63,221 nt of DNA from a virus (lineage: Duplodnaviria; Caudoviricetes): IMG/VR virus record IMGVR_UViG_3300022891_000003, positions 1-63,221 of that record, one strand, 5' to 3'. Of this stretch, positions 31,506-59,214 are shown piece after piece. How positions within the stretch are numbered: position 1 is the stretch's first letter; every line of letters starts with the position of its first letter. A program made the position numbers and the translations under genes. The notes beneath the pieces were generated by a model. That model was not told the origin of the DNA. It worked only from the letters and a program-made list of their open reading frames with translations, and ran no database searches.

Positions 31506-31593
31506 GCCCCTGTAGCTCGAATATGTACTGGGTAGAGCATCCGCCGACCACTGTGAGGCGGGCAGGTTGCCGGTTCGAGTCCGGCCAGGGGCA
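31506..31593 (+). ncRNA. tRNA-like RNA 1 (enlarged D loop, 11-nt anticodon loop)
   Basis: GCCCCTG/CAGGGGC acceptor, GCTC/GAGC D stem, GCCGG-TTCGAGT-CCGGC T arm. Confidence 0.75.
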
Positions 31594-31623
31594 CGCAAGT
31601 AAGAACCCAGTCAGGAGGACGCA

Positions 31624-31956
31624 ATGGGGAATGAAGAGCACCCGTTCAGCATGGGAAGCCCGCGTGACGCGCTGGTGAACCTGGTCGAGCGCGCACTGCG
31701 CGCGGAAGCCGGGGTTCGGGAGCAGCAGACCAACGGGAAGCCCACCGGCTACTACGCAGGACGCAAGGCCGGGTTCGTGGCCAGTGCGGCCACCTTGGCC
31801 AGTATGCTGTTCGGCACCGACTACGAAGCCGCCAAGGCCACCATCAGCAAGAGCGTGGCGGATGCGGGCAAGGGACTGCTCTCCAGCGACCTGCGGCGGC
31901 CCAGCTTCGCGGGCCAGCTCGCCACCGAGATCACCAACTCCGCCCTCAACCTGTAG
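31624..31956 (+). CDS. Hypothetical protein
   Basis: AGGAGG RBS. Confidence 0.65.
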   Translation: MGNEEHPFSMGSPRDALVNLVERALRAEAGVREQQTNGKPTGYYAGRKAGFVASAATLASMLFGTDYEAAKATISKSVADAGKGLLSSDLRRPSFAGQLATEITNSALNL

Positions 31957-32036
31957 CTCCGACGAACCCCACCGGCCGGAGTGCTTCCCTAGGCGCTCCG
32001 GCCTTCCCTTACCCTGTAGCCACTGGGAGGTAGCCC

Positions 32037-32207
32037 ATGCGTACCGCGCTGCAACTGTTCACGTTGGCCTGTCTGCTCATCACGCTGGTGTTCGGAATAG
32101 CCACGGCCTGCACCATCATGAGCTACGAACCGCTCCCGCAACCGACCACTCAAACGTACTGCGATAAGTACACCGACCAAGAGATATGTCCGGAGGACAG
32201 ACCATGA
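32037..32207 (+). CDS. Small membrane protein
   Basis: GGGAGG RBS, N-terminal TM, ATGA coupling. Confidence 0.45.
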   Translation: MRTALQLFTLACLLITLVFGIATACTIMSYEPLPQPTTQTYCDKYTDQEICPEDRP

Positions 32208-33091
32208 ACCCCACCCGCCCCTCCTTCCGCAGGCTTGCCGCTCTTATCGCGACGCTGGCGCTGCTGGCGACCCCGCTCGGGGGCAGCTCGGCACACGCCG
32301 CGCCTAGCCGCGCCAAGGCGCAATGCGGCCCGACCAAGGTGGCCAGCCACAAGACCGCTACAACCGTAGCCCCCGAGAACACCGTTGCGGGCATCAACGC
32401 CGTTCCTGCGCAGGGAGCGGGGGTGGTGGAGCTTGATGTCCAGTGGACCAGCAGCGGGTTCCCCGTCCTGATGCACGACGCTACTGTGAACCGCACCACC
32501 AACGGTACCGGCGAGCCGAGCACACTCAGCCTGAGCGCCATCACCGCGCTCAGCGCCGTCGATGATCCGGCTACCACCTGGAAGACCGACCCCAGGTACA
32601 AAGACGTGAAGGTACCGTACGGCTGGGACTTCATGAACGCCGCGCAGGCGAACAACCTGGACGTACTCGTTGACGTGCACGCGGAGCCCACCCAGCTCGG
32701 GATGGAAAAGCTGGTCAACTACATGGACCGATGGAGCTACCGAACCCGTACGACCATCATGAGCACCTCCGCGCGCATCCAGGCCATGAAGTCCTGGTAC
32801 CCCGGCCTCAACTACGCACTGATCGAGTATCCCCCGAACGGGCGGAGCTACACGCCGAGCTACCTCAAGAGCATCGGAGCCGGTGCGTACGTGATCCCCG
32901 TGCAGAGCCTGAGCCAGCTCGGCGGAGCGGACTTCGTGCAGTACATGCACGCGCAGGGTGTGAAGGTGTTCGTGTGGACGAGCGACAGCGCGGCCCTGGA
33001 CTCCATCTCCGGTTGGGCCAAGGTGTTCGACGTGCAGGCGGACATGCTCATCACGAACGACCCCGCCGGTGCGCTTGCGCAGTGCCTCTGA
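32204..33091 (+). CDS. Secreted glycerophosphodiester phosphodiesterase (GDPD family)
   Basis: Signal peptide (RR, AHA); SHK..PENT, VELDV, VLMHD, VFVWT, LITND. Confidence 0.8.
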   Translation: MNPTRPSFRRLAALIATLALLATPLGGSSAHAAPSRAKAQCGPTKVASHKTATTVAPENTVAGINAVPAQGAGVVELDVQWTSSGFPVLMHDATVNRTTNGTGEPSTLSLSAITALSAVDDPATTWKTDPRYKDVKVPYGWDFMNAAQANNLDVLVDVHAEPTQLGMEKLVNYMDRWSYRTRTTIMSTSARIQAMKSWYPGLNYALIEYPPNGRSYTPSYLKSIGAGAYVIPVQSLSQLGGADFVQYMHAQGVKVFVWTSDSAALDSISGWAKVFDVQADMLITNDPAGALAQCL

Positions 33092-33113
33092 ATCTCATAG
33101 GCTGACCCTACCA

Positions 33114-33127
33114 ACTACCCGGGAGGG
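33114..33127 (+). promoter_or_regulatory. GGGA-loop RBS hairpin
   Basis: ACTACCC-GGGA-GGG before ATG 33132. Confidence 0.7.
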
Positions 33128-33131
33128 CAAA

Positions 33132-33701
33132 ATGGCCAGCAAGATGTGCAGCGCTTGTGGTAAGCGTCGGGTCGCCACCGGCAAGTCCAGCGGCTATGAG
33201 GACAAGGCGTACTGCGCGCAGCAGGACCTCTGCTACCCCTGCGGGGACGAGGGCCAGATGTCCATCAACCACGATAACGGCCACGAGAGCTACCCCGAGG
33301 CGGAGTGCTGGGGATGCCACCCGGAACTCGACGAGAGCGCCAAAGACCCCAAGGCGGTGACCACCGGCCCCAAGGCGCAGGGTGCTCGCCGCCCGCAGCT
33401 CAACCACAAGGGGCACAGCCACCCGCAGACCCCGGCCGCGCGTCGGGAATGCAAGAAGCTGTTCTGGGCCAGCATGACCATAATGCCGAGCGACCTGGAG
33501 CTGGCGGAAGCTATGGGCTCCTGGGACGCCAAGCTCGACGGAAACGGTAAGCTCTGGGTGGCTGTTCCCGGTACGAAGGTGGAGGCCGCCACGGACGGCA
33601 GCGGCAAGACCCGTCCGGCCAAGTGGAACGTTGCTCCACTCGGCCCCAAAGGCGGCGTCGGGCACAGCCTGAAGGTTGCTGCGAACAAGGCTTCCAAGTA
33701 G
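33132..33701 (+). CDS. Cys/His-rich hypothetical protein
   Basis: CSAC, CYPC, CWGC, HSHPQTPAARREC. Confidence 0.65.
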   Translation: MASKMCSACGKRRVATGKSSGYEDKAYCAQQDLCYPCGDEGQMSINHDNGHESYPEAECWGCHPELDESAKDPKAVTTGPKAQGARRPQLNHKGHSHPQTPAARRECKKLFWASMTIMPSDLELAEAMGSWDAKLDGNGKLWVAVPGTKVEAATDGSGKTRPAKWNVAPLGPKGGVGHSLKVAANKASK

Positions 33702-33775
33702 CCCGCTACGCCCCGTGAGAGCCCATGCCCTGATAGGGTGTGGGCTCAAGCATTTCCCCAGCCAAGGAGGGCTTT

Positions 33776-34213
33776 ATGCGGTTCAAGTTCGTGCAGGCGT
33801 TCATCGCTCTGCTCGCTTCAATCGGCCTGTTCGCCGCCTCGCCGGTGTACCCGGTCCAGGCCGCTCCGATCGCGAACTGCGACGACGGTCGGCTGTGCCT
33901 CTACGACGGCACGAACTACGGGACCTACAACTGGACCCAGTACGACATCTCCTGGATCGCGACGTGGCCCAACGGCTGTCTCAACCTGCCGAGCGGCTAC
34001 AACAACAACATCAGCTCGTTCATCCTGAACCCGACTGAGAACCAGAAGAACACCACGATGTCGAGCTACTACGTGCGCATGCACATGAATGCGAACTGTG
34101 CCGGGTACCCGACGCCGATCGGCGAGATGACGGAGTGGACCGAGCCCAACCTCACCGTGACTGACTGGGGCAACGTCAGCAACGCCATCACCAGCATCTC
34201 CATCCGCAACTAG
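33776..34213 (+). CDS. Secreted peptidase-inhibitor I36 / beta-gamma-crystallin-like protein
   Basis: Signal peptide; C..G.LCLY...NY.G, NNNISS and NAITSI motifs. Confidence 0.7.
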   Translation: MRFKFVQAFIALLASIGLFAASPVYPVQAAPIANCDDGRLCLYDGTNYGTYNWTQYDISWIATWPNGCLNLPSGYNNNISSFILNPTENQKNTTMSSYYVRMHMNANCAGYPTPIGEMTEWTEPNLTVTDWGNVSNAITSISIRN

Positions 34214-34239
34214 CTCCACGCACGAATCGGGCCGGGGTC

Positions 34240-34269
34240 TTGCACCCCGGCTCGACTGCGTGATAGAGT
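34240..34269 (+). promoter_or_regulatory. Early promoter
   Basis: TTGCAC-N18-TAGAGT then TCTCA. Confidence 0.65.
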
Positions 34270-34292
34270 TATCTCAACAGCAAGGCACCACC

Positions 34293-34308
34293 ACTCAGCC
34301 GGGAGGCT
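34293..34308 (+). promoter_or_regulatory. GGGA-loop RBS hairpin (covariant stem)
   Basis: ACTC-AGCC-GGGA-GGCT before ATG 34312. Confidence 0.7.
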
Positions 34309-34311
34309 AGC

Positions 34312-34884
34312 ATGAGCACCAAGCACTTCGATCAGACTCTCGCTCTCAAGACCCTCGGTAGCATCATGAAGGAACACGGCATCACGCACGCCGAGCTGCA
34401 CGCGGTGTTCCCGGAGCGGCCGACCACCGAAGACCAGTGCACCGAGGTTGCCGCTTGGCTCAGCCGCAAGATCACGGAGCGCAAGGCTGGGAGCACCAAC
34501 CCTCCCGCCCCTCTTCCGCAGGCCAGGCCGAAGTTCGTCACGGCCGAGATGCTGCCGGAGGGCAACTACGCGGTGCCCGGCAAGGACGGCGGGAAGACCC
34601 GCTTCTACCGGGTGAGCCACAAGGAGGGCAAGGGCAAGTGGGCAGGCACCACGTTCGTCAACATCAAGGAGCGCGCTAGCGACGACCTGTACGACATGGC
34701 TAGCAAGAGCGCCGAGGCTGCTGCCAAGTGGGCCATCTTGGACTACGGGTACGAGCGGTCTCGCCTGCTGTTCTCCGAGAAGTACGACGCTTGCTGGCAC
34801 TGTTTCCGTGGCCTCACCGACGAGGACAATCTGTACAAGGTCTACGGGCTCGGTCCGGTGTGTGGCCCGAAGATCATGGGCTGA
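34312..34884 (+). CDS. DUF6011-like Zn-binding protein
   Basis: CWHCFRGLTD...GLGPVC. Confidence 0.7.
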   Translation: MSTKHFDQTLALKTLGSIMKEHGITHAELHAVFPERPTTEDQCTEVAAWLSRKITERKAGSTNPPAPLPQARPKFVTAEMLPEGNYAVPGKDGGKTRFYRVSHKEGKGKWAGTTFVNIKERASDDLYDMASKSAEAAAKWAILDYGYERSRLLFSEKYDACWHCFRGLTDEDNLYKVYGLGPVCGPKIMG

Positions 34885-34941
34885 TCTGGAGGCCCCGGGG
34901 CTACCCGGGGCACCCCGCCACTCTGTAGAGTGGTCTTACCT

Positions 34942-35018
34942 TCCCGCCTGGCGCAATTGGTCAGCGCGCTCCGGGGTGCAAACTCGGAGGGGTGTCAGTT
35001 CGACTCTGACGGCGGGAG
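34942..35018 (+). ncRNA. tRNA-like RNA 2 (7-bp anticodon stem, GCA centred)
   Basis: TCCCGCC/GGCGGGA, GCGC/GCGC D stem, CTCCGGG-GTGCAAA-CTCGGAG, GTCAG-TTCGACT-CTGAC. Confidence 0.75.
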
Positions 35019-35031
35019 CGCAAGCGCAACC

Positions 35032-35046
35032 ACTACCCGGGAGGGT
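35032..35046 (+). promoter_or_regulatory. GGGA-loop RBS hairpin
   Basis: ACTACCC-GGGA-GGGT before ATG 35052. Confidence 0.75.
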
Positions 35047-35051
35047 CAGCA

Positions 35052-36041
35052 ATGAACAGCAACCCCATGCTCGCCAAGATTCGCGCTCTGCTCGACAAGG
35101 CAGAGTCGACCACCTTCCCCGAAGAGGCGGAGGCGTGCCGGACCAAGGCTGAGCAGCTCATGGCCAAGTACCGTATCGAAGAGGAACAGCTCATCGCGAG
35201 CGACCCCACGGCGCTCTCGCCGGTATGGGGAGATACTCCGCTAGTGAAGCGGAGCAGCTTCTACAGGATGAACTACTGGTCGATGTTCTGGGCAATTGCG
35301 GAACACGCCGGTATCCGGGTAAACCCCGAGTGGCTGATCCAGGATGGGGAACTTCACCTGGTGGCGCACACTGTCGGCTACGAAGCCGATCTGCGGTACG
35401 CGGAGGCTCTGTTCACAAGCGCGCGTATGGTGTTCACCGAGAAGCTGGAGCCGCAGATCAACCGCAGCATGACCGAAGAGGAGAACATCTTCCGGCTGCG
35501 TGCGGCGGGTATCGAGCGAGTCCGTATCGCAGACATGGTTTGGGGCATGGGCTCCCGGCACGACAAGCGGCTGCTCAGCAAGGTCGGTCGGGTGTACGCG
35601 GCGGAGTGCAAGCGACGCGGCGAGACCCCTGCGGTGGCGGGGAGGGGAGTGACCGGTGCCGCCTACCGCGAGCAGTACGCCGAGCAGTTCGTGGTCACGC
35701 TGAGGGTTCGACTGCGCAGGGCTCGCCAGGCGGCTAGCACTGGCGTAGTGCTCCACGGTCGCCAGGAGCGCGTCAACGAGGCGTTCTACACACGCTTCCC
35801 CCACCTGCGGCCCCGCCCGATTAGCGGCGAGCTGGAAAGCGACCGGGCGCCCGTTAAGAAGTGTGAGAAGTGCGCCAAGAGCAAGCGCGGTGCCTGCACG
35901 GAGCACTACATCCCCGTGGGCCGGTCTTCCGGTGGCCGGGACTACTACAGCGCGGCAGCGGTGCGCGGCCGGGAAGCTGGCGCGGCAGCGGCTCGTAACG
36001 TGGACCTTGGTCCTGGCGGTCGCGGAAAGCTCGAGGGCTGA
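35052..36041 (+). CDS. DUF2786-domain protein
   Basis: KIRALLDKAEST...EEAEAC..KA..LMAKY. Confidence 0.8.
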   Translation: MNSNPMLAKIRALLDKAESTTFPEEAEACRTKAEQLMAKYRIEEEQLIASDPTALSPVWGDTPLVKRSSFYRMNYWSMFWAIAEHAGIRVNPEWLIQDGELHLVAHTVGYEADLRYAEALFTSARMVFTEKLEPQINRSMTEEENIFRLRAAGIERVRIADMVWGMGSRHDKRLLSKVGRVYAAECKRRGETPAVAGRGVTGAAYREQYAEQFVVTLRVRLRRARQAASTGVVLHGRQERVNEAFYTRFPHLRPRPISGELESDRAPVKKCEKCAKSKRGACTEHYIPVGRSSGGRDYYSAAAVRGREAGAAAARNVDLGPGGRGKLEG

Positions 36042-36043
36042 CC

Positions 36044-36244
36044 ATGTGCCAGACGGTGGCGGAGGTGCGGGCACACGTGCTCGCCCTCCTAGACCGGGGC
36101 TACAGCCCCGAAGAGTGCGAAACCATGCTCGAGGCAGCCATCCTTACCGGCGGCTGTATTCTTCGGGCTACGGCCCTTTCAGACCCGACCAACGTACTGA
36201 TGCAGGAGGTGACCGAAGATGGCGCAGCCCCGAGGCCCAGTTGA
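36044..36244 (+). CDS. Hypothetical protein
   Basis: GAGGG RBS. Confidence 0.5.
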   Translation: MCQTVAEVRAHVLALLDRGYSPEECETMLEAAILTGGCILRATALSDPTNVLMQEVTEDGAAPRPS

Positions 36245-36434
36245 CATTCTGGGTGTTACCACCCGGACCAATAGCAGCGCTGACCGATACTGTGCTAGCG
36301 AGGCGTGCCCGGTGCCTCTCATCGAGGTGGGCAAGACGTACGAGCGGGTGGCCCGCGACGAGCACACGTTCGAGAGTTACCACCCCGCGTGCTTCGGGGA
36401 AGAGTTCGGGGAGCGGAGGCTTTACGGTGACTAA
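36219..36434 (+). CDS. Small Zn-finger-like protein
   Basis: C....C...YHPACF; GGAGG RBS. Confidence 0.55.
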   Translation: MAQPRGPVDILGVTTRTNSSADRYCASEACPVPLIEVGKTYERVARDEHTFESYHPACFGEEFGERRLYGD

Positions 36435-36568
36435 GTGCCCGGTCAAGTGGAATCCGGTAACGTGGCCGTACGTCACCTCGTGCTCTTTGGAGCGGGGCCA
36501 TGTCGGCAGGCATCAAGACAAGGCGGGCAACGAGTTGCTTAACATCCCCGGCCAAGAGGAGGCCGAAG

Positions 36569-37192
36569 GTGACTAACTGGCTGGCAGACCCGGTCGCGTG
36601 TGCGATACGGCTCAAGAAGGAAAGCGGGTGCACGATCTTGGCAGGAAGGAACGAGGTCATGAGCCGGACCACTCTGGTGAACCGGGAAGAGAAGCCGAAG
36701 GGGGCGATGTACCGCTGGGGCCACCTGTTCGTTCGGGTGGACGGCAAACCCGGCGAGGTGCGGCAGTTCGTCCCTGGCACTAGCGACGGGAGCGGCAACG
36801 AGGCGGGTCATATGCGCCTGAGCGCCGAACACGCCAACGTGATGAGCGACTTGCTTCGCGCGGCGTACGTGAACGCAGGCGGCAGCAACTGCGGCGGCAA
36901 GACGCTGTACGAGATGATCTGGGACGAGATGATGGTCGTAACGGACCGGCTAATGTCGGACGTGGAGGCCGACCAGGAAAGCGACCCGGACGACGTGGGC
37001 GCGGCGCGCAGTCTGGCGTGGGTCATCGCCGTGATGCAGAACCCGTACCTGCCGAACGTGGACGCCGTGCGTGAGCAGGTCATGGAGCGTTGGGATGCCA
37101 TGGACCACGAGCCCGCCCCGGGGCAGCTCACGGAGAAGGAGAACAGGTTGCGAGAGCGTCGCATGTCGAGGAGGGCTCGTCGCCGTGGGTAG
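36569..37192 (+). CDS. Hypothetical protein (start 36569 or 36659)
   Basis: Good codon usage, operon context. Confidence 0.6.
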   Translation: MTNWLADPVACAIRLKKESGCTILAGRNEVMSRTTLVNREEKPKGAMYRWGHLFVRVDGKPGEVRQFVPGTSDGSGNEAGHMRLSAEHANVMSDLLRAAYVNAGGSNCGGKTLYEMIWDEMMVVTDRLMSDVEADQESDPDDVGAARSLAWVIAVMQNPYLPNVDAVREQVMERWDAMDHEPAPGQLTEKENRLRERRMSRRARRRG

Positions 37193-37349
37193 CCTGTTCG
37201 AGTGGGAAGAGCCCAATCCGGACTGCAAGGAGTGCCAGGAAGAAGGGCTCGTGCCTGCGCGCAACCCGGGGGACATGCACGAGCCTAAGCCGTACACCGG
37301 CGAGCTCGATTGGGACCGTGACCCGGTCTTGCACCCGTTCGTCGACTGA
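37185..37349 (+). CDS. Hypothetical protein
   Basis: GGAGG RBS; CxxC. Confidence 0.45.
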   Translation: MGSLFEWEEPNPDCKECQEEGLVPARNPGDMHEPKPYTGELDWDRDPVLHPFVD

Positions 37350-37357
37350 CGTAGAGT
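37329..37357 (+). promoter_or_regulatory. Early promoter
   Basis: TTGCAC-N17-TAGAGT. Confidence 0.6.
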
Positions 37358-37370
37358 GACCGTAGCAACT

Positions 37371-37385
37371 ACTACCCGGGAGGGT
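37371..37385 (+). promoter_or_regulatory. GGGA-loop RBS hairpin
   Basis: ACTACCC-GGGA-GGGT before ATG 37389. Confidence 0.75.
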
Positions 37386-37388
37386 TAC

Positions 37389-37700
37389 ATGAGCATCTTG
37401 GGAGAGCGAGACGGCCTTGCCGTAGAGATCAGCGAACTGATCAATGCGATAGCCGATGACCATGAACTTATCGAGGAGTATCAGGAAGGCGACCCGCCGA
37501 GCTTCACCATCACCGACGTTCACGAGCCGAAGAAGACGGACAACATTCTGTTCGTAACCACTAGCTCCGGGAACCGTTTTCGCATTGCGGTGGAAGTGGC
37601 AGAAGCGGAGACGTACGTGCCGCCAAAGCGCCCCGGCAAGACAGATAAGCAGAGAGCCTTCGAAGATCGCACTGACTTCCCTGGTTGGGAGAACCTGTGA
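37389..37700 (+). CDS. Hypothetical protein
   Basis: Start defined by the RBS hairpin. Confidence 0.65.
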   Translation: MSILGERDGLAVEISELINAIADDHELIEEYQEGDPPSFTITDVHEPKKTDNILFVTTSSGNRFRIAVEVAEAETYVPPKRPGKTDKQRAFEDRTDFPGWENL

Positions 37701-38407
37701 GCCGCCAGGAGCGCGGCGCGATGCGTCGCAAGCTGGCTGAGCGCAAGGCCCGGGAGATTGTCGAGCAGGCTACCGCCAAGGTGGTGGCCGCTCGGCCCTC
37801 CCAGCCCTCCTCTCCGCAGGACCAGGCACAGGAGTGCAAGCGCCTGCGGGACGGCGGTATGGTGTGGTGGCTTATCGGGCAAAAGCTGGGGCTGGCGGGC
37901 CAGGCCGGGAGTGCCAGCGAGCCCGAGGCTAAGCGTGGTGCGGGGGCAGCCAGGCGGCTGTACGCGGCTGCGAACCGGGGCGAGGTGCCGCGTACCCAGC
38001 GGCAGCGCGCTGGCACGGTGGCCAAGCCAACCGGCCCGGCGAGTCGGGGCGTGCCCGCGTACATGCGCAAGGAAGCGCTCGTGCGTGATGGCCATGTGAT
38101 CCCCCGGGACCTGCCGGATGAGGAAGTGGAGGCCATGCTGGTCGGTCGTCGCATCGAATGGGCTATCGACATGGCCAAGCTGACCAATACGGATCCGGAG
38201 ACCTGGGGGCCAGAGGACGGTCGTTGGGTGCGGCAGGAGGCCAAGGTACACGTTGACCCGCAATGGGTGCGCGTAGTGCGTGACGAGGATACAGAAGAGC
38301 GCATCCTGTACTTCCGGGAGTACAACGGCTTTGACACCGATCGGCAGAAGCACATGAGTGGCCCCACGCGGGTCATACGAGTCGACAGCATCTACACCGT
38401 CGCATAA
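37697..38407 (+). CDS. Hypothetical protein with possible HTH
   Basis: LRDGGMVWWLIGQKLG. Confidence 0.6.
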   Translation: MSRQERGAMRRKLAERKAREIVEQATAKVVAARPSQPSSPQDQAQECKRLRDGGMVWWLIGQKLGLAGQAGSASEPEAKRGAGAARRLYAAANRGEVPRTQRQRAGTVAKPTGPASRGVPAYMRKEALVRDGHVIPRDLPDEEVEAMLVGRRIEWAIDMAKLTNTDPETWGPEDGRWVRQEAKVHVDPQWVRVVRDEDTEERILYFREYNGFDTDRQKHMSGPTRVIRVDSIYTVA

Positions 38408-38426
38408 CTAGCCAGGAGGAGAAGCC

Positions 38427-38717
38427 ATGGCTGAAAAGATCACACCAGGCAGCAAGTACGCCCGGCTCGTGCTGGGAGTGCGCAAGCTCCAGCGCGGCCA
38501 GGTGTACGTAGCCACGAAGGGGCACGACTTCAACTGCCTACCGCAGAGCTTCCAGAATGTCGTGCATCTGGTCGCCCGTAGCAAGGAGGGCAACTGGAAG
38601 GCCACGACCGCCATTGTGGGCAACCAGGTGTTCTTCGCGTACTACGAAGCGCGGGACTACATGAAGCCGAACATGCCCGCGATGCCGCTTGTGCGCAAGG
38701 CGCGGGGAGAGCAATGA
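38427..38717 (+). CDS. Hypothetical protein
   Basis: AGGAGG RBS. Confidence 0.6.
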   Translation: MAEKITPGSKYARLVLGVRKLQRGQVYVATKGHDFNCLPQSFQNVVHLVARSKEGNWKATTAIVGNQVFFAYYEARDYMKPNMPAMPLVRKARGEQ

Positions 38718-38843: not shown

Positions 38844-38872
38844 TTGTGACGGTCGATGGGCTAGGCTATGGT
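38844..38872 (+). promoter_or_regulatory. Promoter for helicase operon
   Basis: TTGTGA-N17-TATGGT then TCTCA. Confidence 0.55.
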
Positions 38873-38887: not shown

Positions 38888-38901
38888 ACTAGCCGGGAGG
38901 C
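38888..38901 (+). promoter_or_regulatory. GGGA-loop RBS hairpin
   Basis: ACTA-GCC-GGGA-GGC before GTG 38906. Confidence 0.7.
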
Positions 38902-41802: not shown

Positions 41803-42312
41803 ATGCCGCGCACCCGAAAGACCGCCCCGGCGCCCGAGCCCGAGGTCGCCGAGACCGAGGAGACCGCCGGTAGCAAGCGCGGTCCGAACGAGCTCACTAC
41901 TGTCTTCGTCGGCTGGCTCAAGGACACCTACGGCGTCGACGCCGACCCGGAGGTCGTGTACCTCGCTCAGACCACCCGGCGCGAGTTCCGGGAGTCCGAC
42001 GCCTACCAGGACTACCTCGAGGCGGCCGAAGAGCGCAAGGAGGCGGCGGCGAAGGCGAAGGCCGAGCGCGCCCAGGCAGCGGCAGCGGCGGCCGAGGAGA
42101 CCACCTCCGAGGAGCCCGCGAAGCCCACCACACGCAGTCGTTCGCGCAAGGCGGCGGCGCCGGTGGCGCAGGCCGAGCCGGAGCCCGCGAAGCCCACCAC
42201 ACGCAGTCGTTCGCGCAAGGCGGCGGCAGCTCCGGCCGGTGCCGAGGCCGACGCGCCTGCCGAGGCCGCGAAGCCCGCGCCCCGTACCCGCACCCGCAAG
42301 GCGCCGTTCTAG
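41803..42312 (+). CDS. Histone-like/nucleoid-associated protein (putative)
   Basis: AAGGAG RBS; Ala/Lys/Pro/Arg-rich tail with duplicated EPAKPTTRSRSRKAAA. Confidence 0.65.
   Translation: MPRTRKTAPAPEPEVAETEETAGSKRGPNELTTVFVGWLKDTYGVDADPEVVYLAQTTRREFRESDAYQDYLEAAEERKEAAAKAKAERAQAAAAAAEETTSEEPAKPTTRSRSRKAAAPVAQAEPEPAKPTTRSRSRKAAAAPAGAEADAPAEAAKPAPRTRTRKAPF
42111..42227 (+). repeat. 48-bp exact direct repeat (42111-42158, 42180-42227)
   Basis: GGAGCCCGCGAAGCCCACCACACGCAGTCGTTCGCGCAAGGCGGCGGC twice. Confidence 0.9.
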
Positions 42313-42347
42313 TAGGACCCCGAGCATGTTGAAGGCGTGCTCGGTTC

Positions 42348-42418
42348 GGTGGGATAGCTCAGCGGTTAGAGCAGGCTCCTTCGCAGCCCGGTAGCTGGTT
42401 CGAATCCAGCTCCCACCA
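42348..42418 (+). ncRNA. tRNA-like RNA 3 (short anticodon stem, loop CCTTCGC without U33)
   Basis: GGTGGGA/TCCCACC, GCTC/GAGC, GCTGG-TTCGAAT-CCAGC. Confidence 0.75.
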
Positions 42419-42598
42419 CGTTACAGCGAAAGTTTGAGAGGTAGGCCGGGGATACTTCCCCCACAGGAGTGCATAGTGCACGCTCCGGCCAGACCGTATC
42501 AGCGAGCGACTGTATCCGGGGCACCCACGGTCCGGTGCATGAGCAGGGTCGTACTCATCCACGTCGAACGCAAACCGGCGACCCGGCCCTGCTCGTAA

Positions 42599-42726
42599 CG
42601 CGGGATAGCTCAAGACAGTCATGATTCGCGCAAAGCGTTACCTGGCGTGGCTGCACGGAAGAGCGGGCCAAACCTCCTTCAGGTGGAGTTAGGGCAAGGA
42701 TGCTGGTTCGAGTCCAGCTCCCGCGA
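42599..42726 (+). ncRNA. tRNA-like RNA 4 (~49-nt D loop, elongated anticodon arm)
   Basis: CGCGGGA/TCCCGCG, TA-GCTC...GAGC, GCTGG-TTCGAGT-CCAGC. Confidence 0.7.
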
Positions 42727-42730
42727 CTGT

Positions 42731-52982: not shown

Positions 52983-53475
52983 CCGCACCATCGCCAGCCT
53001 GCTGGACAGCGGCGACATCAAGATCGTACCCGCTCCGACTAACGAACAGATTCAGCCCATCAGTCTGGACCTCAAGCTCGGCAACAGCTTCGCTCTGCAA
53101 ACGCCGGAGCCTGGGCAGTGGCACCGGTTCATCGGTGCACACACCGTCGTGCGGCCCGGGGAGTTCCTGCTGGCGTGCACGGAAGAGCGCATTACGCTAC
53201 CGGCGCACATCGCGGGCTTCGTGCACGGCAAGAGCACCTGGGCGCGTAAGGGCCTGATGGTAGAGGCGGCTGGCCTGGTGGACCCGGGCTTCGACGGCAC
53301 CATCACTCTCGAGCTCAAGAACCTGAGCCACCACCCCCTCCCCCTCGTCGCAGGGCGGGCCATCTGCCAGCTCAGCTTGCACGCGGTAGACACTGCCGTC
53401 GTGCGGCCGTACGGCTCGGCCGGACTGGGCTCGAGGTACCAGAACCAGGTGCGCGCGGAGCCGCCCCGTGCGTAA
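52969..53475 (+). CDS. dcd: dCTP deaminase
   Basis: MLLSD, QPISLDL, GKSTWARKGL, VDPGFDG.ITLE, ICQL, YQNQ. Confidence 0.88.
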   Translation: MLLSDRTIASLLDSGDIKIVPAPTNEQIQPISLDLKLGNSFALQTPEPGQWHRFIGAHTVVRPGEFLLACTEERITLPAHIAGFVHGKSTWARKGLMVEAAGLVDPGFDGTITLELKNLSHHPLPLVAGRAICQLSLHAVDTAVVRPYGSAGLGSRYQNQVRAEPPRA

Positions 53476-56400
53476 GCGCGCTGAGCTGCACGCGCACACC
53501 ACGTTCAGCCCGGGCGACGGGTATGCCATGCCGCAAGCGCACTTCGAGGCGTGCGCAGAGCTCGGCATTACGGCGCGTGCCCTCACCGAGCATGGGAACG
53601 TGAGCAGCCATGCAAACGCGGAGCGCGCAGCGGCCAAGGTCGGCGTGAAGGACATCAAGGGCTGCGAGCTCTACTGCGAGACCGAGGATGAACGGGGCCA
53701 GCTAAAGCACCACCTGACTGTACTCGCCATGAACGACACCGGCCTGCGCAACCTCTATGAGGTGGTGACGAAGAGCTGGGACAACTTCCGATACAAGCCA
53801 ACCACCACTGGCGAGATGCTGGCCGAGCACAACGATGGTCTCATCGTGCTGTCGGGCTGCCTCGGCGGCCGGTTGGCTACTGCGGTGATGGGAGGGAAGG
53901 GTGGGGAAGAACACGCGGCGGACCTGGAGGCGGGCTCTCGAGTTGCGGGGCAGTTCCGAGAGGTATTCGGTGACCGATACTATCTGGAGGTGCAGGCGCA
54001 CCCACTGCTCGAAAAGCAGCGTGCGTACAATCGTGCAGTGGCACGTATTGGCCAACGAATGCGTATACCACTCGTGGCAACCGGTGACGTGCATTACCCG
54101 ACGGAGGATGACCAGGACATCTACCCCATCCTCCACGCTATCGACCGGGGCGGCTCGCGCAACACGGTTGAGGCGCAGGCGCAGAGCTGGGAGTACGGTC
54201 TGGTACTTGCGCACCAGTCAGCTGACGCTGTATATGAGGGGCTCAGAGAAACTGGCCTACGCAGCTCGGTGGCGGATAGCGCTATTGAAACCAGCCTCGA
54301 GATATCGGACCGTTGCAACGTCACTCTCCCGAAGCTCAAGGACCTGGTGTTCCCCGGGGAGGCACCGAGCCGGGAGCTGTTCATGCAATGGCTCCGGGAG
54401 GGTTGGCGGTACCGGGGGCTGAACCGGCTTACCGGGGCTACCCGCAAGGCGTACCTGGCTCGTCTGAAGTATGAGACAGAACTCATTCTGTCGAAGGGCT
54501 TCACCGACTACTTCTTGGTCATCAGCGAGATGGTGAAGTGGTCCAAGCAGCACGGCATCCCCGTCGGCCCGGCGCGCGGCTCGGCCGCTGCGTCGCTGGC
54601 GTGCTGGCTGCTGCGCATCACCGAGGTCAACCCAATGCTGTTCCCCAACCTCATCTTCGAGCGGTTCATTGACATCAATCGGCACGACCTGCCGGACGTT
54701 GACCTTGACTTCGACGACGAGCTGCGGCACAAGGTGCGCGAGCATCTGGTAGAGCTGTACGGCGCAGAGCGCGTGGGTAACATCGGAACGTTCACCATGT
54801 ACCGGGGCAAGAACAGTCTAGAGGACGTGGCCCGGGTGTTCAACATCCCGAAGACTGCGGTGGAGGAGGTGAAGGGAGGGCTGCTGGAGCGTTCTTCGGG
54901 TGACCTGCGGTACGGCCAAACCATCGAGGACTCCCGCGCGTTGTTCCCCAAGGTCGAGGCGGTGTTCACCAAGTACCCCGACCTCAACCACTCACAGCGG
55001 CTCGAGGGCAACGTCAAGGGCTTCAGCGTGCATGCGGCCGGGCTGGTGGTGGCCAACGGCTCGCTGACCGAGAACCTGGCGGTGTACAAGCGCGTTGACC
55101 CGAAGGGCAACGTCATCGGCGAGGTGCTCAGCATTGACAAGTACGACGCTGAGTACTTGAACGTTTTGAAGATCGATGCGCTGGGCCTGACCACCATGGG
55201 CCTCATCCGACGGGCGCTGAACTACATCGGAATGACGCTGGAGGATTTGTATGCTGTCCCGCTGGATGACGAGAAGGTCTACGAAGGTTTCCGGCGGAAT
55301 GAGGTCATTGGCATCTTTCAGTTTGATGGGCGTGCCATGCGTTCTGTCAACCGAGAAGTCAAGCCGGACACGTTCGCAGAGGTCTGTGACATTAACGCTT
55401 TGGCTCGGCCCGGTCCGCTGCACTCTGGAGCGGCTGCCGAGTACATCATGGCCAAGCACAAGAAGAAGATGGTGGAGAAGCTCCACCCCATCGTGACCGC
55501 CATCACCGCGCACACCAACGGGCAGATCGTTTACCAGGAGCAGATCCTGCGGGTAGTGCGGGAGCTCGGCGGGTTCACGTGGGAAGAGGCCGCCCTGGTC
55601 CGCAAGCTCATCAGCAAGAAGCAGGGCGAGCAGGCGTTCAACCGGCTCATGGGCAAGTTCCTCGAGGGCTCCCGGGCCAAGGGCGTCAAGGACGCGGTGG
55701 CGGCCAAGGTGTGGAAGCAAATCGTGACCGCTGGCGCGTACGCCTTCAACGCCGCGCACTGTGTCTCGTACGGGATGCTGGCCTACTGGACCATGTGGCT
55801 AAAGCAGAATCATCCGCTGGCCTTCTACGCGGCAGCCCTGGCCAAGTACAAGGACGAGGACAAGGTGCTGGACATCCTGAAGGAGGTGACCGGCAAAGGT
55901 ATCCGTGTACTCCCGCCGCACCCCGAGCTCTCGCATCTCACGTGGAGCATCGAAGGCGACGCCCTGCGGGCTGGCCTGGTGCAGGTGAAGGGCATCGGCG
56001 AGAAGACGGCCGAGCTGATGCTGGCACATCGCGATGCATGCGGACCACACAGTATGATCGACTGGGCCGACTACACCGCCGTCAAGGGTATCGGCCCGAA
56101 GACCATGGAGACGGTGCAGGAGTTCTGCGCCAAGGAAGACCCGTTCGGTATCCACCAGCTGCGTCGGTCGCTGGATCGCATGCGCTGGTGGATCAAGGAG
56201 AAGGGGGCCAAGTTTGACCTCCCCTACCCTTCCTCCCGCAGTGAGGACATCCCCTACGAAGCCATCCGGGGCGAGCACGTCTGGCTGGGCCGCATCGTGC
56301 ACCGCAACCTGAAGGACATCTACGAGCTGCACCGCTCGCGGACCGGCGAGGAGCTGGACCCCAAGAAGGTCAAGGAGCCGCAGTACGTCAACTACGCCGT

Positions 56401-56593
56401 GCTAGTTGGCGAAGATGAGACCGGTCCGTTGACCATCACGGTGCACCGGTACGGCGGGTTATACGAAAAGTTCAAGGACGACATCTGGGACATCGACCAA
56501 GATAAGGACCTGGTTCTGGTTCGCGGCTACAAGCGGGCCGAGTACCGCCGAGCCATCTATGCCACCGAGCTACACGTACTGACGGGAGAATGA
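53468..56593 (+). CDS. dnaE: DNA polymerase III alpha subunit
   Basis: PHP LHAHTTFS, ARGSAA, PDVDLD, HAAG, KIDALGL, YAFN..H. Confidence 0.95.
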   Translation: MRKRAELHAHTTFSPGDGYAMPQAHFEACAELGITARALTEHGNVSSHANAERAAAKVGVKDIKGCELYCETEDERGQLKHHLTVLAMNDTGLRNLYEVVTKSWDNFRYKPTTTGEMLAEHNDGLIVLSGCLGGRLATAVMGGKGGEEHAADLEAGSRVAGQFREVFGDRYYLEVQAHPLLEKQRAYNRAVARIGQRMRIPLVATGDVHYPTEDDQDIYPILHAIDRGGSRNTVEAQAQSWEYGLVLAHQSADAVYEGLRETGLRSSVADSAIETSLEISDRCNVTLPKLKDLVFPGEAPSRELFMQWLREGWRYRGLNRLTGATRKAYLARLKYETELILSKGFTDYFLVISEMVKWSKQHGIPVGPARGSAAASLACWLLRITEVNPMLFPNLIFERFIDINRHDLPDVDLDFDDELRHKVREHLVELYGAERVGNIGTFTMYRGKNSLEDVARVFNIPKTAVEEVKGGLLERSSGDLRYGQTIEDSRALFPKVEAVFTKYPDLNHSQRLEGNVKGFSVHAAGLVVANGSLTENLAVYKRVDPKGNVIGEVLSIDKYDAEYLNVLKIDALGLTTMGLIRRALNYIGMTLEDLYAVPLDDEKVYEGFRRNEVIGIFQFDGRAMRSVNREVKPDTFAEVCDINALARPGPLHSGAAAEYIMAKHKKKMVEKLHPIVTAITAHTNGQIVYQEQILRVVRELGGFTWEEAALVRKLISKKQGEQAFNRLMGKFLEGSRAKGVKDAVAAKVWKQIVTAGAYAFNAAHCVSYGMLAYWTMWLKQNHPLAFYAAALAKYKDEDKVLDILKEVTGKGIRVLPPHPELSHLTWSIEGDALRAGLVQVKGIGEKTAELMLAHRDACGPHSMIDWADYTAVKGIGPKTMETVQEFCAKEDPFGIHQLRRSLDRMRWWIKEKGAKFDLPYPSSRSEDIPYEAIRGEHVWLGRIVHRNLKDIYELHRSRTGEELDPKKVKEPQYVNYAVLVGEDETGPLTITVHRYGGLYEKFKDDIWDIDQDKDLVLVRGYKRAEYRRAIYATELHVLTGE

Positions 56594-57273
56594 TCATGGC
56601 AAAGTTCAGCGAGCACGGGGTGGCCTACCTGACCGAGCCACGCCCGGGGGTACCGCAGGCAGCGGAGCCGTTCTACTGGGACCGCCGGTTGTCAGTGGCT
56701 GCCAACGTCGGAGCCATCCAGCACTACATCAACAAATACGAGCGGATGCTGCCCAGTAGTAATCTGTTCGACGAGGCGGCCATCATGGTTCCGAACAGGG
56801 CCGTGGAAGAGCGGCTTTGCAACGAACTGACGCTGGGTGGCTGGCATGAGTTCAACAGCGCCTACGATCTGGTGCACACCAGCCCGTTCGGCACGCGGTA
56901 CATCGTGACGTACAAGTTCTACCGGCACTCCGCCGTGCCGTGGCGGCTGGAGGTCATGCGTCTGGGGCACAAGGCCACCGGTGATGGCCTGGCTGGTTTC
57001 AGCCCGTTGCATCAGGCCCTATGGACGGACGGAGACACACCGGCGTGGGAGGATTGGGCCGAGCTGCCAGTGCCGCACCTGAGCTTCAAGCCGGTGGGGC
57101 AGGATGCGGGGAGAGCTGCCCGGCGGGCGCTGGACCACATGCGTAACGAGATGGGCTTCCTGCTGGCGCAGGGCTGCCAGTCCACGTACGGCGAGTTCTG
57201 GTACCTGCTGCACCAGGACGCCCCTCGCCAGCTCTACATCAAGCCGCGCATCAACCGCAGGGACGGAGCGTGA
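56590..57273 (+). CDS. Hypothetical protein (possible VOC-like fold)
   Basis: LEV, HLSFK, YIKPRIN; sits inside the nucleotide cluster. Confidence 0.55.
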   Translation: MIMAKFSEHGVAYLTEPRPGVPQAAEPFYWDRRLSVAANVGAIQHYINKYERMLPSSNLFDEAAIMVPNRAVEERLCNELTLGGWHEFNSAYDLVHTSPFGTRYIVTYKFYRHSAVPWRLEVMRLGHKATGDGLAGFSPLHQALWTDGDTPAWEDWAELPVPHLSFKPVGQDAGRAARRALDHMRNEMGFLLAQGCQSTYGEFWYLLHQDAPRQLYIKPRINRRDGA

Positions 57274-57373
57274 CGCCGCACGAACAGTGCCCGCTCAAGG
57301 AGAAGCACGGCTATCACGAGTGGTACAAAGGACCTTTCCGACGTCAGTGCAAGGGGAGAAAGAAGGCAGCCAA

Positions 57374-58066
57374 GTGAACAAGATTCTCGTAGTGGGGGCA
57401 CGGCCCCGGTCTATCGGCAGCGCCATCGCCAAGGTTGCCGAGAGCAAAGAGTACGAAGTGGTGCTGGCCGGTATCCACAACGAAGACGTGAAGATGGATG
57501 TGGTGGCCGACGCCATCGGCAGCTTGCGGGAAAAGCTGGTGCGCATCAACCCCGACCACATCATCTGCACGGTCGGCATGAACATGCCCGAGTCCGCCAT
57601 GGCCGACGATCCGGCCGACTGGTACCGCTGGCACTTCGAGACCAACGTGACCGGTCCGATGCGGTTGTTGCAGGCGTGGACCGACGTGAACAAAGACCGC
57701 AGCATGCTCAAGCACTACGTCGCCATCAGCAGCAACAGCGCCCGAGTGCCGCGCACCGCTTCAGCCGCGTACTGCGCTAGCAAAGCGGCCCTCTCGCAGG
57801 CCCTGCGGGTGAAGGCGCGGGAGGGAGAAGGCGGCGACAAGTGGGGAGTCGTGGTCTACGGCTACGAGCCTGCGCTCATCGCCGCGACGCCCATGACCGA
57901 GGAGGCGGCCCACAAGTGGGGTGCCGACAACCTCACCCGCATGCGCGGTTCTGGGCTGGCAAGGGGCATCTGGGTCGGCTCTTTTGCCCAGTACGTAGTG
58001 CACGGCCTACATCTCGGGCCTGCCATGAACGGCATGCTGGTGCCGTTTGATGGGGATGAGCGCTGA
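57374..58066 (+). CDS. Short-chain dehydrogenase/reductase
   Basis: VVGA...IG, N..G, ISS, YCASKAAL. Confidence 0.85.
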   Translation: MNKILVVGARPRSIGSAIAKVAESKEYEVVLAGIHNEDVKMDVVADAIGSLREKLVRINPDHIICTVGMNMPESAMADDPADWYRWHFETNVTGPMRLLQAWTDVNKDRSMLKHYVAISSNSARVPRTASAAYCASKAALSQALRVKAREGEGGDKWGVVVYGYEPALIAATPMTEEAAHKWGADNLTRMRGSGLARGIWVGSFAQYVVHGLHLGPAMNGMLVPFDGDER

Positions 58067-58252
58067 ACGGCCCGTTAGGGTTGCGGTGGGCAGTTTGGTG
58101 TGGCAAGGTTTGCCCCGTGAAACTGGTACGCGACATCGCATGCTTCCTGGCTTTGCCTGCCGGTCTTGTGCTGGGGCTGGCAGGCCACATGGTGAGAGTA
58201 GCGGGGTAAGGCCCCCCGACCCGCTCTCTCCGCAGGGTTGGCCCACCCTGCG

Positions 58253-58321
58253 ACCCCTGCTAGCCGCCGCCCGTGGAGGGATGGCGTGGGATTACTGCCC
58301 GTTCGAGTCGGGCCAGGGGTA
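58253..58321 (+). ncRNA. tRNA-like RNA 5 (acceptor + T arm, single internal hairpin)
   Basis: ACCCCTG/CAGGGGT; GCCCG-TTCGAGT-CGGGC. Confidence 0.65.
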
Positions 58322-58358
58322 CGACGCCGCACAGTGCGGCGCGATTGAAAGGAACGCA

Positions 58359-58904
58359 GTGAACAACGAAGAGACCATGATCGTGATGACCAAGGACCAG
58401 CTCGCGGCGACCAAGAAGAAGGGTCGTCGCATCCTCGGCATCCCGGCCATCATCGCCGCCCCCATCGCGGCCGTTCTCGCCTTCGGCGGCGTCGCCCTCG
58501 CGGCGATCCTGTTCAGCATGACCGGCTCGGCCACGGCGCAGGCCGACAACGGCACCACCCCGACCATCTCCGGCGAGCACTTCAGCGGCAAGTTCTACCC
58601 CGGCGCGGAGCGGGACCTGATCTTCACGGTCAACAACACCAACGAGTTCCCGGTCAAGGTCACCAGCATCGCCGCGACCGGCATCTCGGACCTGACGGCG
58701 GGCTGCGAGGGCGGCGCCAAGCTGAGCGGCTTCGCCACGGCGTTCAACCAGGACAAGGCGCTGGCCGGTGGTGGCGTCACGGTTCCGGCCGGGGACTCGG
58801 CCGTCGTGACCATCCCCAAGGCGGTCAAGCTGCACCCGTCGGCGACCGCCGGGTGCGGCTTCAAGATCAACCTCAAGGTAACCGGCTCCGGCGCGGGAAA
58901 CTAA
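58359..58904 (+). CDS. Secreted pilin/fibre-like Ig-fold protein (short form)
   Basis: AAAGG RBS, GTG 58359; KKKGRR + hydrophobic + ALA signal peptide; YPG...F.V.N.N.FPV motif; two Cys. Confidence 0.75.
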   Translation: MNNEETMIVMTKDQLAATKKKGRRILGIPAIIAAPIAAVLAFGGVALAAILFSMTGSATAQADNGTTPTISGEHFSGKFYPGAERDLIFTVNNTNEFPVKVTSIAATGISDLTAGCEGGAKLSGFATAFNQDKALAGGGVTVPAGDSAVVTIPKAVKLHPSATAGCGFKINLKVTGSGAGN

Positions 58905-59011
58905 CCGGGCTCGCTCGTACCGGCGGCAACCTCTGGCCGCTTGCGGCAGCTGGAGTCGCGCTGGTACTGGCGGGTGTGCTAGTTCGAAGGGTAGGGTTTG
59001 GTCATGGGTAG
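58895..59011 (+). other. Predicted -1 frameshift site and LARTG sortase-anchor extension
   Basis: G_GGA_AAC at 58895-58901 immediately before TAA; -1 frame reads LTGLARTGGNLWPLAAAGVALVLAGVLVRRVGFGHG*. Confidence 0.75.
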
Positions 59012-59123
59012 TAAACCACCGAAGACACCACCGTCAAGGCCGATTCGCCAACCCGCCAAACCGCAGTACCCGAAACCGGCCCCCACCCCTCGGCCAGCGC
59101 CGAGGCCAGGGCCCAAGAGGTAA
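59004..59123 (+). CDS. Pro/Arg/Lys-rich peptide
   Basis: MGSKPPKTPPSRPIRQPAKPQYPKPAPTPRPAPRPGPKR, followed by a hairpin. Confidence 0.4.
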   Translation: MGSKPPKTPPSRPIRQPAKPQYPKPAPTPRPAPRPGPKR

Positions 59124-59156
59124 CACGCGGGGTCGGCCGCCACCGGCCCCGCTTAC

Positions 59157-59214
59157 GCCCCGAGCCAGCTAACACCTGGGCAGGAAACCAGCGGTTCGAA
59201 TCCGCCGAGGGGCA
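59157..59214 (+). ncRNA. tRNA-like RNA 6 (minimal)
   Basis: GCCCC/GGGGC-A-CGCA; CCAG/CTGG hairpin; GCGG-TTCGAAT-CCGC. Confidence 0.55.

Follow-up and report, generated by a model that had tools for sequence, protein, structure and literature searches.

Selectively conserved tRNA-shaped elements that lack a usable anticodon arm lie between genes of an uncultured actinophage-like virus and may mark sites of messenger RNA processing

The window analysed here is the complete IMG/VR record IMGVR_UViG_3300022891_000003 (63,221 bases; G+C 63%), in which almost all genes are on the + strand and a replication and recombination module encoding an SNF2 helicase, a PD-(D/E)XK (Cas4-like) nuclease, a primase-helicase, a DnaE-like polymerase, ThyX, a Sak4-like protein and UDG fills the right half. 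Protein identity to the nearest named phages (hosts Streptomyces, Arthrobacter, Microbacterium, Gordonia and Mycobacterium) is only 33-48%, and a megablast comparison with named phages returned no close DNA relative; the window is therefore attributed to an uncultured, actinophage-like soil phage. Six elements with the acceptor stem and T arm of a transfer RNA (tRNA), designated E1 to E6, occupy gaps between its genes, and each is preceded by a hairpin (Table 1). These elements, the kind of RNA that they are likely to form and their possible use to the phage are the subject of this report.

Both strands of the window were scanned for a T loop of the form TTCRANN on a T stem with all five pairs, together with a 7-nucleotide (nt) acceptor strand abutting the T stem and pairing at all seven positions with a partner strand 30-140 nt upstream. 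This strict scan matched exactly E1 to E5 on the + strand and nothing on the - strand. All acceptor pairs of these five elements (35/35) are Watson-Crick, and the T loop is in each case TTCGANT. In 200 dinucleotide-preserving shuffles of the window, scanned on both strands, the mean number of strict matches was 0.175 and the maximum 2, with at least one match in 30/200. Unconstrained folding reproduces the acceptor and T arms of E1, E2, E3 and E5. E6 falls below the strict thresholds, with a T stem of 4/5 pairs (an A.C mismatch) and an acceptor of 5/7 with tandem G.A/A.G, for which an alternative 6/7 partner at 59146 doubles as the 3' arm of the upstream hairpin; it is counted as a member mainly because orthologous elements occupy the same junction and share the trailer ACGCAG. 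A preliminary description, made from the sequence alone, had listed six tRNA mimics at these sites, and five of them are recovered with intact acceptor and T arms on the gene strand, the sixth being eroded.

The acceptor sequences are unrelated from junction to junction. The T-arm motif GGTTCRANYCC is present in E1, E3, E4 and E6, and its stem positions deviate in E2 (AGTTCGACTCT) and E5 (CGTTCGAGTCG). A D stem is found in E1 to E4, its loop being 16 nt long in E1 and 49 nt long in E4, and is missing from E5 and E6; every oddity of the D and anticodon halves that had been listed beforehand was found again on reading and folding the sites. Also as described, no element encodes CCA, and E1, E2 and E6 end in N-CGCA. 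ARAGORN reports three of the elements, as tRNA-Leu (E1, with the anticodon placed within the D stem), tRNA-Cys (E2, gca) and tRNA-Glu (E3, ttc), and the Rfam tRNA model RF00005 (gathering cut-off 29 bits) matches E3 with 51 bits and E1 with 36.5 bits, leaving E2, E4, E5 and E6 unreported even at E<=10. Sensitive Rfam scans gave no further RNA family. With positions 42340-42730 as query, blastn aligned E3 at about 79% with tRNA-Ile, tRNA-Arg and tRNA-Met genes of phages, matches of a generic kind only, and gave nothing for E4. Third-position G+C of the mechanical open reading frames (ORFs) over the elements is 0.58-0.73, compared with 0.79-0.95 in real genes.

Table 1. Positions and structures of the six tRNA-shaped elements and of the hairpins upstream of them in the window (bp, base pairs).
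Feature	Position	Strand	Length (nt)	Structure	Surroundings
Hairpin before E1	31480-31499	+		8 bp (GGGGCGGC/GCCGCCCC)	After stop of gene 31069-31473; ends 6 nt 5' of E1
E1	31506-31593	+	88	Acceptor 7/7; D stem with 16-nt loop; 6-bp stem with 11-nt loop; T arm GCCGG-TTCGAGT-CCGGC; discriminator A	Trailer CGCA; ATG of next gene at 31624
First hairpin before E2	34893-34910	+		CCCCGGG..CCCGGGG	After gene 34312-34884
Second hairpin before E2	34917-34934	+		GCCACTC-TGTA-GAGTGGT; the TAGAGT inside it could alternatively be a -10 box	Ends 7 nt 5' of E2
E2	34942-35018	+	77	Acceptor 7/7; normal D arm; 7-bp 'anticodon' stem, loop GUGCAAA; T arm GTCAG-TTCGACT-CTGAC; discriminator G	Trailer CGCA; then CTACCCGGGAGG at 35033-35044 and ATG at 35052
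Hairpin before E3	42320-42344	+		CCGAGCA..TGCTCGG	After gene 41803-42312; ends 3 nt 5' of E3
E3 (most tRNA-like)	42348-42418	+	71	Acceptor 7/7; canonical D and T arms; 4-bp stem with C33 in its loop CCUUCGC; discriminator A	Trailer CGTT
Long hairpin before E4	42541-42594	+		GAGCAGGG..CCCTGCTC	Ends 4 nt 5' of E4
E4	42599-42726	+	128	Acceptor 7/7; D stem with 49-nt loop; conserved arm GAGCGGGCCAAACCTCC..GGAGTTAGGGCA; T arm GCTGG-TTCGAGT-CCAGC; discriminator A	Trailer CTGT
Hairpin before E5	58231-58252	+		CGCAGGGT..ACCCTGCG	Abuts E5 (gap 0 nt)
E5	58253-58321	+	69	Acceptor 7/7; single hairpin in place of D and anticodon arms; T arm GCCCG-TTCGAGT-CGGGC; discriminator A	Trailer CGAC; GTG of next gene at 58359
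Hairpin before E6	59127-59152	+		10 bp (GCGGGGTCGG..CCGGCCCCGC)	After small ORF 59005-59123; ends 4 nt 5' of E6
E6 (eroded)	59157-59214	+	58	Acceptor 5/7; T stem 4/5, loop TTCGAAT; hairpin(s) in place of D and anticodon arms; discriminator A	Trailer CGCA; then CTACCCGGGAGG at 59228-59239 and ATG at 59244

Relatives were collected from IMG/VR and metagenome contigs by searches with the nuclease and ThyX, and ten records were taken whole or to their ends. A further 21 elements were found on 11 related uncultured contigs (nuclease identity to the window 55-77%), bringing the family to 27. The strict scan alone yields 18 of the 27, and the nine weaker ones were accepted also on their position and trailer, so that their membership is partly circular; loosened motif scans gave many matches within coding sequence, which were excluded from the counts. 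In six related records the strict scan gave nine matches on the gene strand and none on the opposite strand. Four junctions, assigned by homology of the flanking genes, hold all of the elements. The flanking proteins are only 50-76% identical, and the DNA flanks of the elements cannot be aligned. The E1 junction carries elements of 88 nt in the window, 69 nt (G006_b), 59 nt (G008_b) and 40 nt (G007_c), and none in G002; the E2 junction carries elements of 77 nt in the window, 68 nt (G006_c) and 57 nt (G008_c), and none in G002 or G007. Eleven E3-type orthologues of 70-109 nt lie 5' of the Cas4-like nuclease gene. The E4 type was found only in the window and in contig L033 (L033_b), which carries three elements in a row. 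The junction 5' of thyX accommodates E5, E6, G002_b, G006_d and G007_b. The E2 junction of G007 has the same hairpin with TAGAGT and the same leader as the window, with the element missing, which indicates that the E2-type element has been inserted at a junction that is conserved in other respects; in G002 a structured leader of another kind is found there.

No elements were found in three more distant whole records (G005, G009 and G010), and no strict match at the nuclease loci of a group with 51-52% identity. The ThyX search gave no relative closer than 70%, and the nine new distant thyX loci that it gave are without a strict element. Five named cultured relatives (phages of Streptomyces, Arthrobacter, Mycobacterium and Gordonia) have no tRNA-model matches above the cut-off, and the annotation of Streptomyces phage PHTowN shows no tRNA next to its Cas4 gene. 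The core motif of E4 occurs in 14 stretches of IMG/VR; L033 is the one relative among them, and the remaining 13 are chance-like occurrences in unrelated sequence.

The acceptor and T arms, and in many copies the D arm, have been preserved through compensatory changes. In an alignment of the 11 E3-type orthologues (A2), 98.8% of the 171 cells of the 16 acceptor, D and T pairs are paired, and five pairs (24 cells) have changed on both sides. None of 500 shuffles reached the observed paired fraction or covariation score, in a shuffle that ignores relatedness; independent of relatedness are the number of different base pairs seen (one acceptor position, for instance, has CG, UA and GC) and a control in which the partner strand was slid by 1-3 columns, which lowers pairing to 39-49%. 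The D arm is invariant in 10 of the 11 orthologues. Between E4 and L033_b, five of the seven acceptor pairs and one T-stem pair have changed on both sides and the inner arm is conserved. Over the whole family, the acceptor is fully paired (7/7) in 20/27 elements and the T stem (5/5) in 22/27. The G.U pairs of G002_a, L058_a and G007_c, as read on the + strand, point to an RNA of the gene strand.

By contrast, neither sequence nor length is conserved in the region that separates the D and T arms, which ranges from 8 to 120 nt. A program scored each element for a usable anticodon arm, defined as a 5-bp stem with a 7-nt loop having U at position 33 and a purine at position 37. Ten of 11 control bacterial tRNAs have such an arm, and only one of the 27 elements does, namely E2, in which the stem continues to 7 bp; read strictly, none of the six elements in the window has one. 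The 40-nt copy at the E1 junction (G007_c) is a bare acceptor-T minihelix in which 8 nt separate the acceptor strand from the T arm. At the E2 junction the 7-nt loop is replaced by a GAAA tetraloop in G006_c and the arm is lost in G008_c, and at the E3 junction the anticodon arm varies from one with a 5-nt loop up to hairpins of about 50 nt; long, near-perfect hairpin arms are found in G002_b, G003_a, G004_a, L033_a, L033_c and L058_a. Thus, the decay seen in the relatives is confined to the decoding arm instead of being spread over all arms, the reverse of the pattern expected for canonical tRNAs decaying at random. The earlier suggestion that the elements are retained for shape and not for decoding is supported, in that the relatives carry no canonical tRNAs at these junctions and compensatory changes have kept the T arm, the acceptor and, among E3-type elements, also the D arm. 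The family very probably consists of selected, non-decoding RNAs of tRNA shape.

The context of the elements is also fixed. All 27 lie in gaps between genes, on the gene strand, and in 21 of the 27 a perfect hairpin with a stem of at least 7 bp ends 0-7 nt 5' of the element, compared with 252 of 3000 (8.4%) random positions, this control being composed of random positions and not of gene ends. An earlier control based on minimum-free-energy folds did not discriminate (21/27 versus 354/600). A scan for U-tract terminators gave none beside the elements and few matches overall, at the level of shuffles, the upstream hairpins having no U tract, and a scan with the sigma-70 consensus gave no promoter. 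The gap between hairpin and element is too short for a separate promoter, which suggests that the element is transcribed through the hairpin. Gene-end hairpins that are without an element are followed by a promoter-like CTTGCG-N17/18-TAGAGT, and the element thus sits where a promoter would lie at other junctions.

Downstream, a ribosome-binding site (RBS) and start codon follow within about 18-38 nt of the element at the E1, E2 and thyX junctions. The preliminary description had placed four elements just upstream of a gene start and two of them against a GGGA RBS hairpin; the four are E1, E2, E5 and E6, which end 30-38 nt before the start codon, and E2 and E6 abut the motif CTACCCGGGAGG. This 12-nt start-associated motif has six exact + strand copies in the window (at 29906, 31051, 33115, 35033, 37372 and 59228), each ending 4-7 nt before a start codon, and a one-mismatch copy at 38889; it is conserved in the relatives G002, G006, G007 and G008, and we take it to resemble the start-associated sequences of cluster K mycobacteriophages. 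Four of the copies are preceded by promoter-like pairs, read by eye as CTTGCG or CTTGCA, 17-18 nt, and TAGAGT, TAATGT or TAGGCT (at about 29850-29905, 31000-31050, 33075-33114 and 37330-37371), each located after a gene-end hairpin. At the 3' ends of the elements the discriminator is A in 24/27, the base after it is C in 27/27 (including 18/18 of the strict-scan set) and the second base after it is G in 24/27, against a background of about 0.10-0.12 for the CG dinucleotide.

The acceptor-T half of a tRNA is the part recognized by RNase P, by RNase Z and by the CCA-adding enzyme, all of which accept acceptor-T minihelices, the minimal in vitro substrate. The reading favoured here, tentatively and at somewhat less than an even chance, is that the elements are tRNA-derived, non-decoding modules, the 't-elements' of a phage, which would serve as cut marks for host RNase P and 3'-end enzymes and so punctuate polycistronic messenger RNA (mRNA). 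In its favour are the location of the elements at cistron boundaries with a hairpin only 0-7 nt before them, the shortening of one copy to a bare minihelix and the fact that the acceptor sequences are unrelated. Processing of the elements by host tRNA-end enzymes is in itself rather probable; their transcription, their cutting and any benefit to the phage are what we infer from the sequences. Two uses had been proposed beforehand, and mRNA punctuation is the one that the context favours; a role as decoys for anticodon nucleases or for ribosome-bound stringent-response sensing fits poorly with RNAs that have no anticodon loop.

Under the proposed scheme, the elements would be transcribed within polycistronic mRNAs, in the gaps between co-oriented genes, and selection would act on the half that tRNA-end enzymes recognize, consisting of the 7-bp acceptor stacked on the T arm, often the D arm, the discriminator A and the C that follows it. 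Host RNase P would cut at the 5' end of the acceptor, leaving an upstream mRNA that ends in a strong hairpin, which would shield it against 3' exonucleases. RNase Z, or another endonuclease combined with trimming, would then release the 3' side, and the downstream cistron would begin with a leader of 18-38 nt bearing its RBS. The excised piece would probably be completed to CCA from the encoded C and be a stable by-product. Such modules probably originated from ordinary phage tRNA genes within operons, whose decoding was lost and whose processing signal was kept by selection.

Several observations weigh against this proposal. Occurrence is patchy: elements are missing at some junctions (E1 and E2 of G002, E2 of G007) and from distant and cultured relatives, and are therefore dispensable. 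E6, G006_c and G008_c are eroded (acceptor 5-6/7, T stem 4/5), as would be expected if some copies are disappearing. The E3 type lies in a non-coding island of about 500 nt and not directly before a gene, its near-invariant D arm and long, well-paired arms exceed what punctuation needs, and tandem copies (E3 with E4, and the three in L033) seem superfluous if the elements serve as cutting marks. Hairpins at gene ends are frequent in these genomes also in places without a following element, and the hairpin statistic was controlled by random positions. The conserved C after the discriminator may also hinder RNase Z, which would alter the 3' step.

Part of this evidence would suit other explanations. 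If the excised, CCA-completed RNAs were decoys that titrate host factors reading the acceptor/T half, such as defence toxins acting on tRNA 3' ends, and so protected the tRNA pool, then multiple and tandem copies (six in the window, three in a row in L033) would raise their dose, and the conserved acceptor end (A73 in 24/27, C74 in 27/27) and the full elbow kept in the E3 type would be explained. Phage tRNAs do counter tRNA-targeting defences according to PMC10264068, a text in which a term search gave no mention of tRNA-like RNAs or decoys. Decoys are nevertheless an unlikely explanation: acceptor sequences that differ between junctions mean that no single tRNA is copied or mimicked, RNAs that have no anticodon loop cannot serve as decoys for anticodon nucleases, and the tight fit to the upstream hairpin and downstream RBS would be superfluous. 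A combined form, an anticodon-free counter-defence in which CCA-tailed acceptor-T decoys, released in large numbers and without added cost from the phage's own mRNA spacers, would titrate immune effectors or sensors of tRNA 3' ends, joining punctuation with shielding of the tRNA pool, is given a rather low probability as well. Neutral relics, that is, dead tRNA genes not yet erased and now functionless, would account for the patchiness among relatives, the eroded members (E6, G006_c and G008_c) and the absence from distant relatives. Such relics are quite improbable in view of the full pairing of most acceptor and T stems, which has persisted despite different sequences, flanking proteins of limited identity and unalignable flanks, and in view of decay restricted to one arm, unlike random decay.

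The possibility that at least E2 (Cys, GCA) and E3 (Glu, UUC) are odd but working tRNAs, the others being decayed copies, draws on the anticodons that ARAGORN assigns to E1 to E3, on the RF00005 score of E3, on the textbook loop of E2 (G-U-GCA-A-A) and on the existence of 6-bp anticodon stems in natural tRNAs (PMC7609411). It is very improbable all the same: the stem of E2 has 7 bp, and in its orthologues the arm ends in a tetraloop or is missing; the stem of E3 has only 4 bp and position 33 is C, and the ten orthologues of E3 have unrelated arms with no common anticodon. The discriminator of E2 is moreover G, and the identity base of tRNA-Cys at this position is U. Given the orthologues, decoding by E2 or E3 is unlikely. 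Finally, the tRNA frame might provide processing and stability to small RNAs whose working part is the variable arm (a protein-binding or antisense hairpin, or an equivalent in one piece of the YrlA RNAs that bind Ro60), as could be suggested by the many long, near-perfect hairpin arms, by the conserved core in the arm of E4 and by YrlA itself, an RNase P-cut tRNA-like RNA of actinobacteria and mycobacteriophages (PMC4201824). The chance of this is slim, since the arms are not conserved between orthologues and are sometimes missing, and the Rfam YrlA model RF02553 reaches only 14.2 bits (E = 5.4; cut-off 69), on the T arm of E4 alone. There is also no TROVE (Ro60/Rsr) gene in the window, none being matched across the entire 63-kb record at E<=1, and neither Ro60 nor a tRNA enzyme nor an RNA ligase was present among the 26 proteins given to a protein family scan (from about 72 plus-strand ORFs of a crude gene list, all 26 from 29-63 kb).

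Other identities were rejected. ARAGORN and Rfam scans gave no transfer-messenger RNA; a tRNA 3' fragment serving as attP/attB is incompatible with the presence and covariation of both acceptor strands; and intron-containing tRNAs are discounted because removal of the inserts of 9-50 nt, which are far too short for group I introns, yields no common anticodon. The 25 nt of E3 that comprise the T arm, 3' acceptor strand and A73 (42394-42418) are identical to 28 stretches of bacterial genomes, all non-actinobacterial, of which the four loci that were checked are tRNA-Tyr(GTA) genes. As a lead to the host or to a parent tRNA this match was rejected on the grounds that E3 orthologues carry other acceptor sequences, and the identity is probably convergence.

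Some further sequence features of the window and its relatives were noted. A 21-nt motif, GGGGCACCCACSGTYYGGTGC, which contains the inverted repeat GCACC..GGTGC, is found once per record in eight related records, always between an E3-type element and the nuclease gene and in surroundings that cannot be aligned (window 42518-42538; L003 282-302; L004 9856-9876; L030 2948-2968; L031 2771-2791; L032 2455-2475; L033 397-417; L049 386-406). Its sequence is conserved rather than its pairing, and it may be a protein-binding site, for example an operator or origin. About 150 nt 3' of the E3-type element, a second, more eroded T arm (GGAG-TTCGAGT-CTCC) with the trailer ACGCAG or ACGTAC is conserved between two records (L005 at about 9770-9800, corresponding to G003 57419, and L036, corresponding to G004 11861); pairing of its acceptor requires a bulge. 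The conserved arm of E4 contains ACCTCCTT (42672-42679), with ACCTCC in L033_b (L033 at about 579-584), which pairs with GGAG in the fold and matches the anti-Shine-Dalgarno end of 16S ribosomal RNA. The hairpin CCCCGGGG..CCCCGGGG occurs at 34893-34910, after a gene, and a hairpin of the same kind lies inside the long arm of G002_b (L015 at about 18905-18935). Accessory genes of the window encode a GDPD-family phosphodiesterase (32204-33091), a weak match to peptidase inhibitor family I36 (33776-34213) and a short-chain dehydrogenase adjoining the polymerase (57347-58066).

The proposed use of the elements has precedents in other systems. In animal mitochondria, RNase P and RNase Z cut out the tRNAs that separate cistrons and thereby release the mRNAs; these are likewise tRNA-shaped units between cistrons, but they are working tRNAs, whereas the phage units have no anticodon loops. 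Cis-acting RNA structures that recruit a host nuclease, separate transcripts and leave protective ends are also known from the RNase III sites of phage T7 early genes, from MALAT1 mascRNA and from herpesvirus tRNA-like units, the last two of which use RNase P and RNase Z; the T7 sites differ from the phage elements by nuclease, and the mascRNA and herpesvirus units by domain of life. The closest parallel is with the t-elements of plant mitochondria, described in PMC1920247 as non-canonical tRNA-like sequences, found through the motif GGTTCRANYCC, whose ends coincide with mRNA ends, to which non-encoded C or CA is added, and which are thought to direct the RNase P and RNase Z cuts that make those ends. 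The phage elements share with them the non-canonical cloverleaf, the conserved T-arm motif and the position at gene boundaries. They differ in belonging to a bacterial virus and not to an organelle, in which protein-only RNase P and organellar RNase Z are the enzymes concerned, and in having a fixed upstream hairpin and, directly 3' of the discriminator, an encoded C that is conserved; cleavage at t-elements has been mapped, whereas the phage elements are known here from sequence.

In M. smegmatis, YrlA has a tRNA-like domain with a 7-bp acceptor; RNase P cleaves this domain, which in vivo acquires a CCA tail through the addition of CA (PMC4201824); the conserved encoded C74 of the phage elements would fit a similar addition of CA. 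Both are non-decoding and have acceptor, D and T arms, but as described in PMC4201824 the ends of YrlA form a stem that binds Ro60, its acceptor is closed by a loop and a Ro60 gene adjoins it, whereas the phage elements end at the acceptor stem. The irregular and allo-tRNA-like sequences known from phages and bacteria of soil, some of them inactive in translation and proposed to be regulatory RNAs (PMC5389517), resemble the phage elements in being non-canonical tRNA-shaped genes of soil metagenomes; according to the same source they retain anticodon arms and have 8/4 or 9/3 acceptor/T pairs, whereas the phage elements have 7/5 and have lost the anticodon arm. The phage tRNAs treated in PMC10264068 as escaping anticodon nucleases are similarly encoded by actinophages and have anticodon loops that depart from those of the host, but they decode through 7-nt loops, and the phage elements have no usable loop.

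No description of anticodon-less tRNA-like elements between phage genes was found in the literature searched; a survey of structured RNAs in IMG/VR (PMC10690425), which reports 8,495 candidates and mentions 'tRNAs or tRNA-like structures' in general terms, may include some among its supplementary candidates. If the reading as mRNA punctuation is correct, these would be, as far as that literature goes, the first non-organellar, non-decoding tRNA-shaped spacers to use host tRNA-end enzymes for the cutting of polycistronic messages, and they would offer a testable route by which phage tRNA genes may be re-used after decoding stops. The family forms a natural deletion series from 152 to 40 nt, which reveals what selection keeps: the acceptor stem, the T arm, A73 and C74. 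It also carries a warning for annotation, since the Leu, Cys and Glu names that ARAGORN gives to three of the elements would distort arguments on codon usage that are based on phage tRNAs. As compact, self-excising modules combined with an upstream hairpin, the elements could serve as parts for building operons in actinobacteria.

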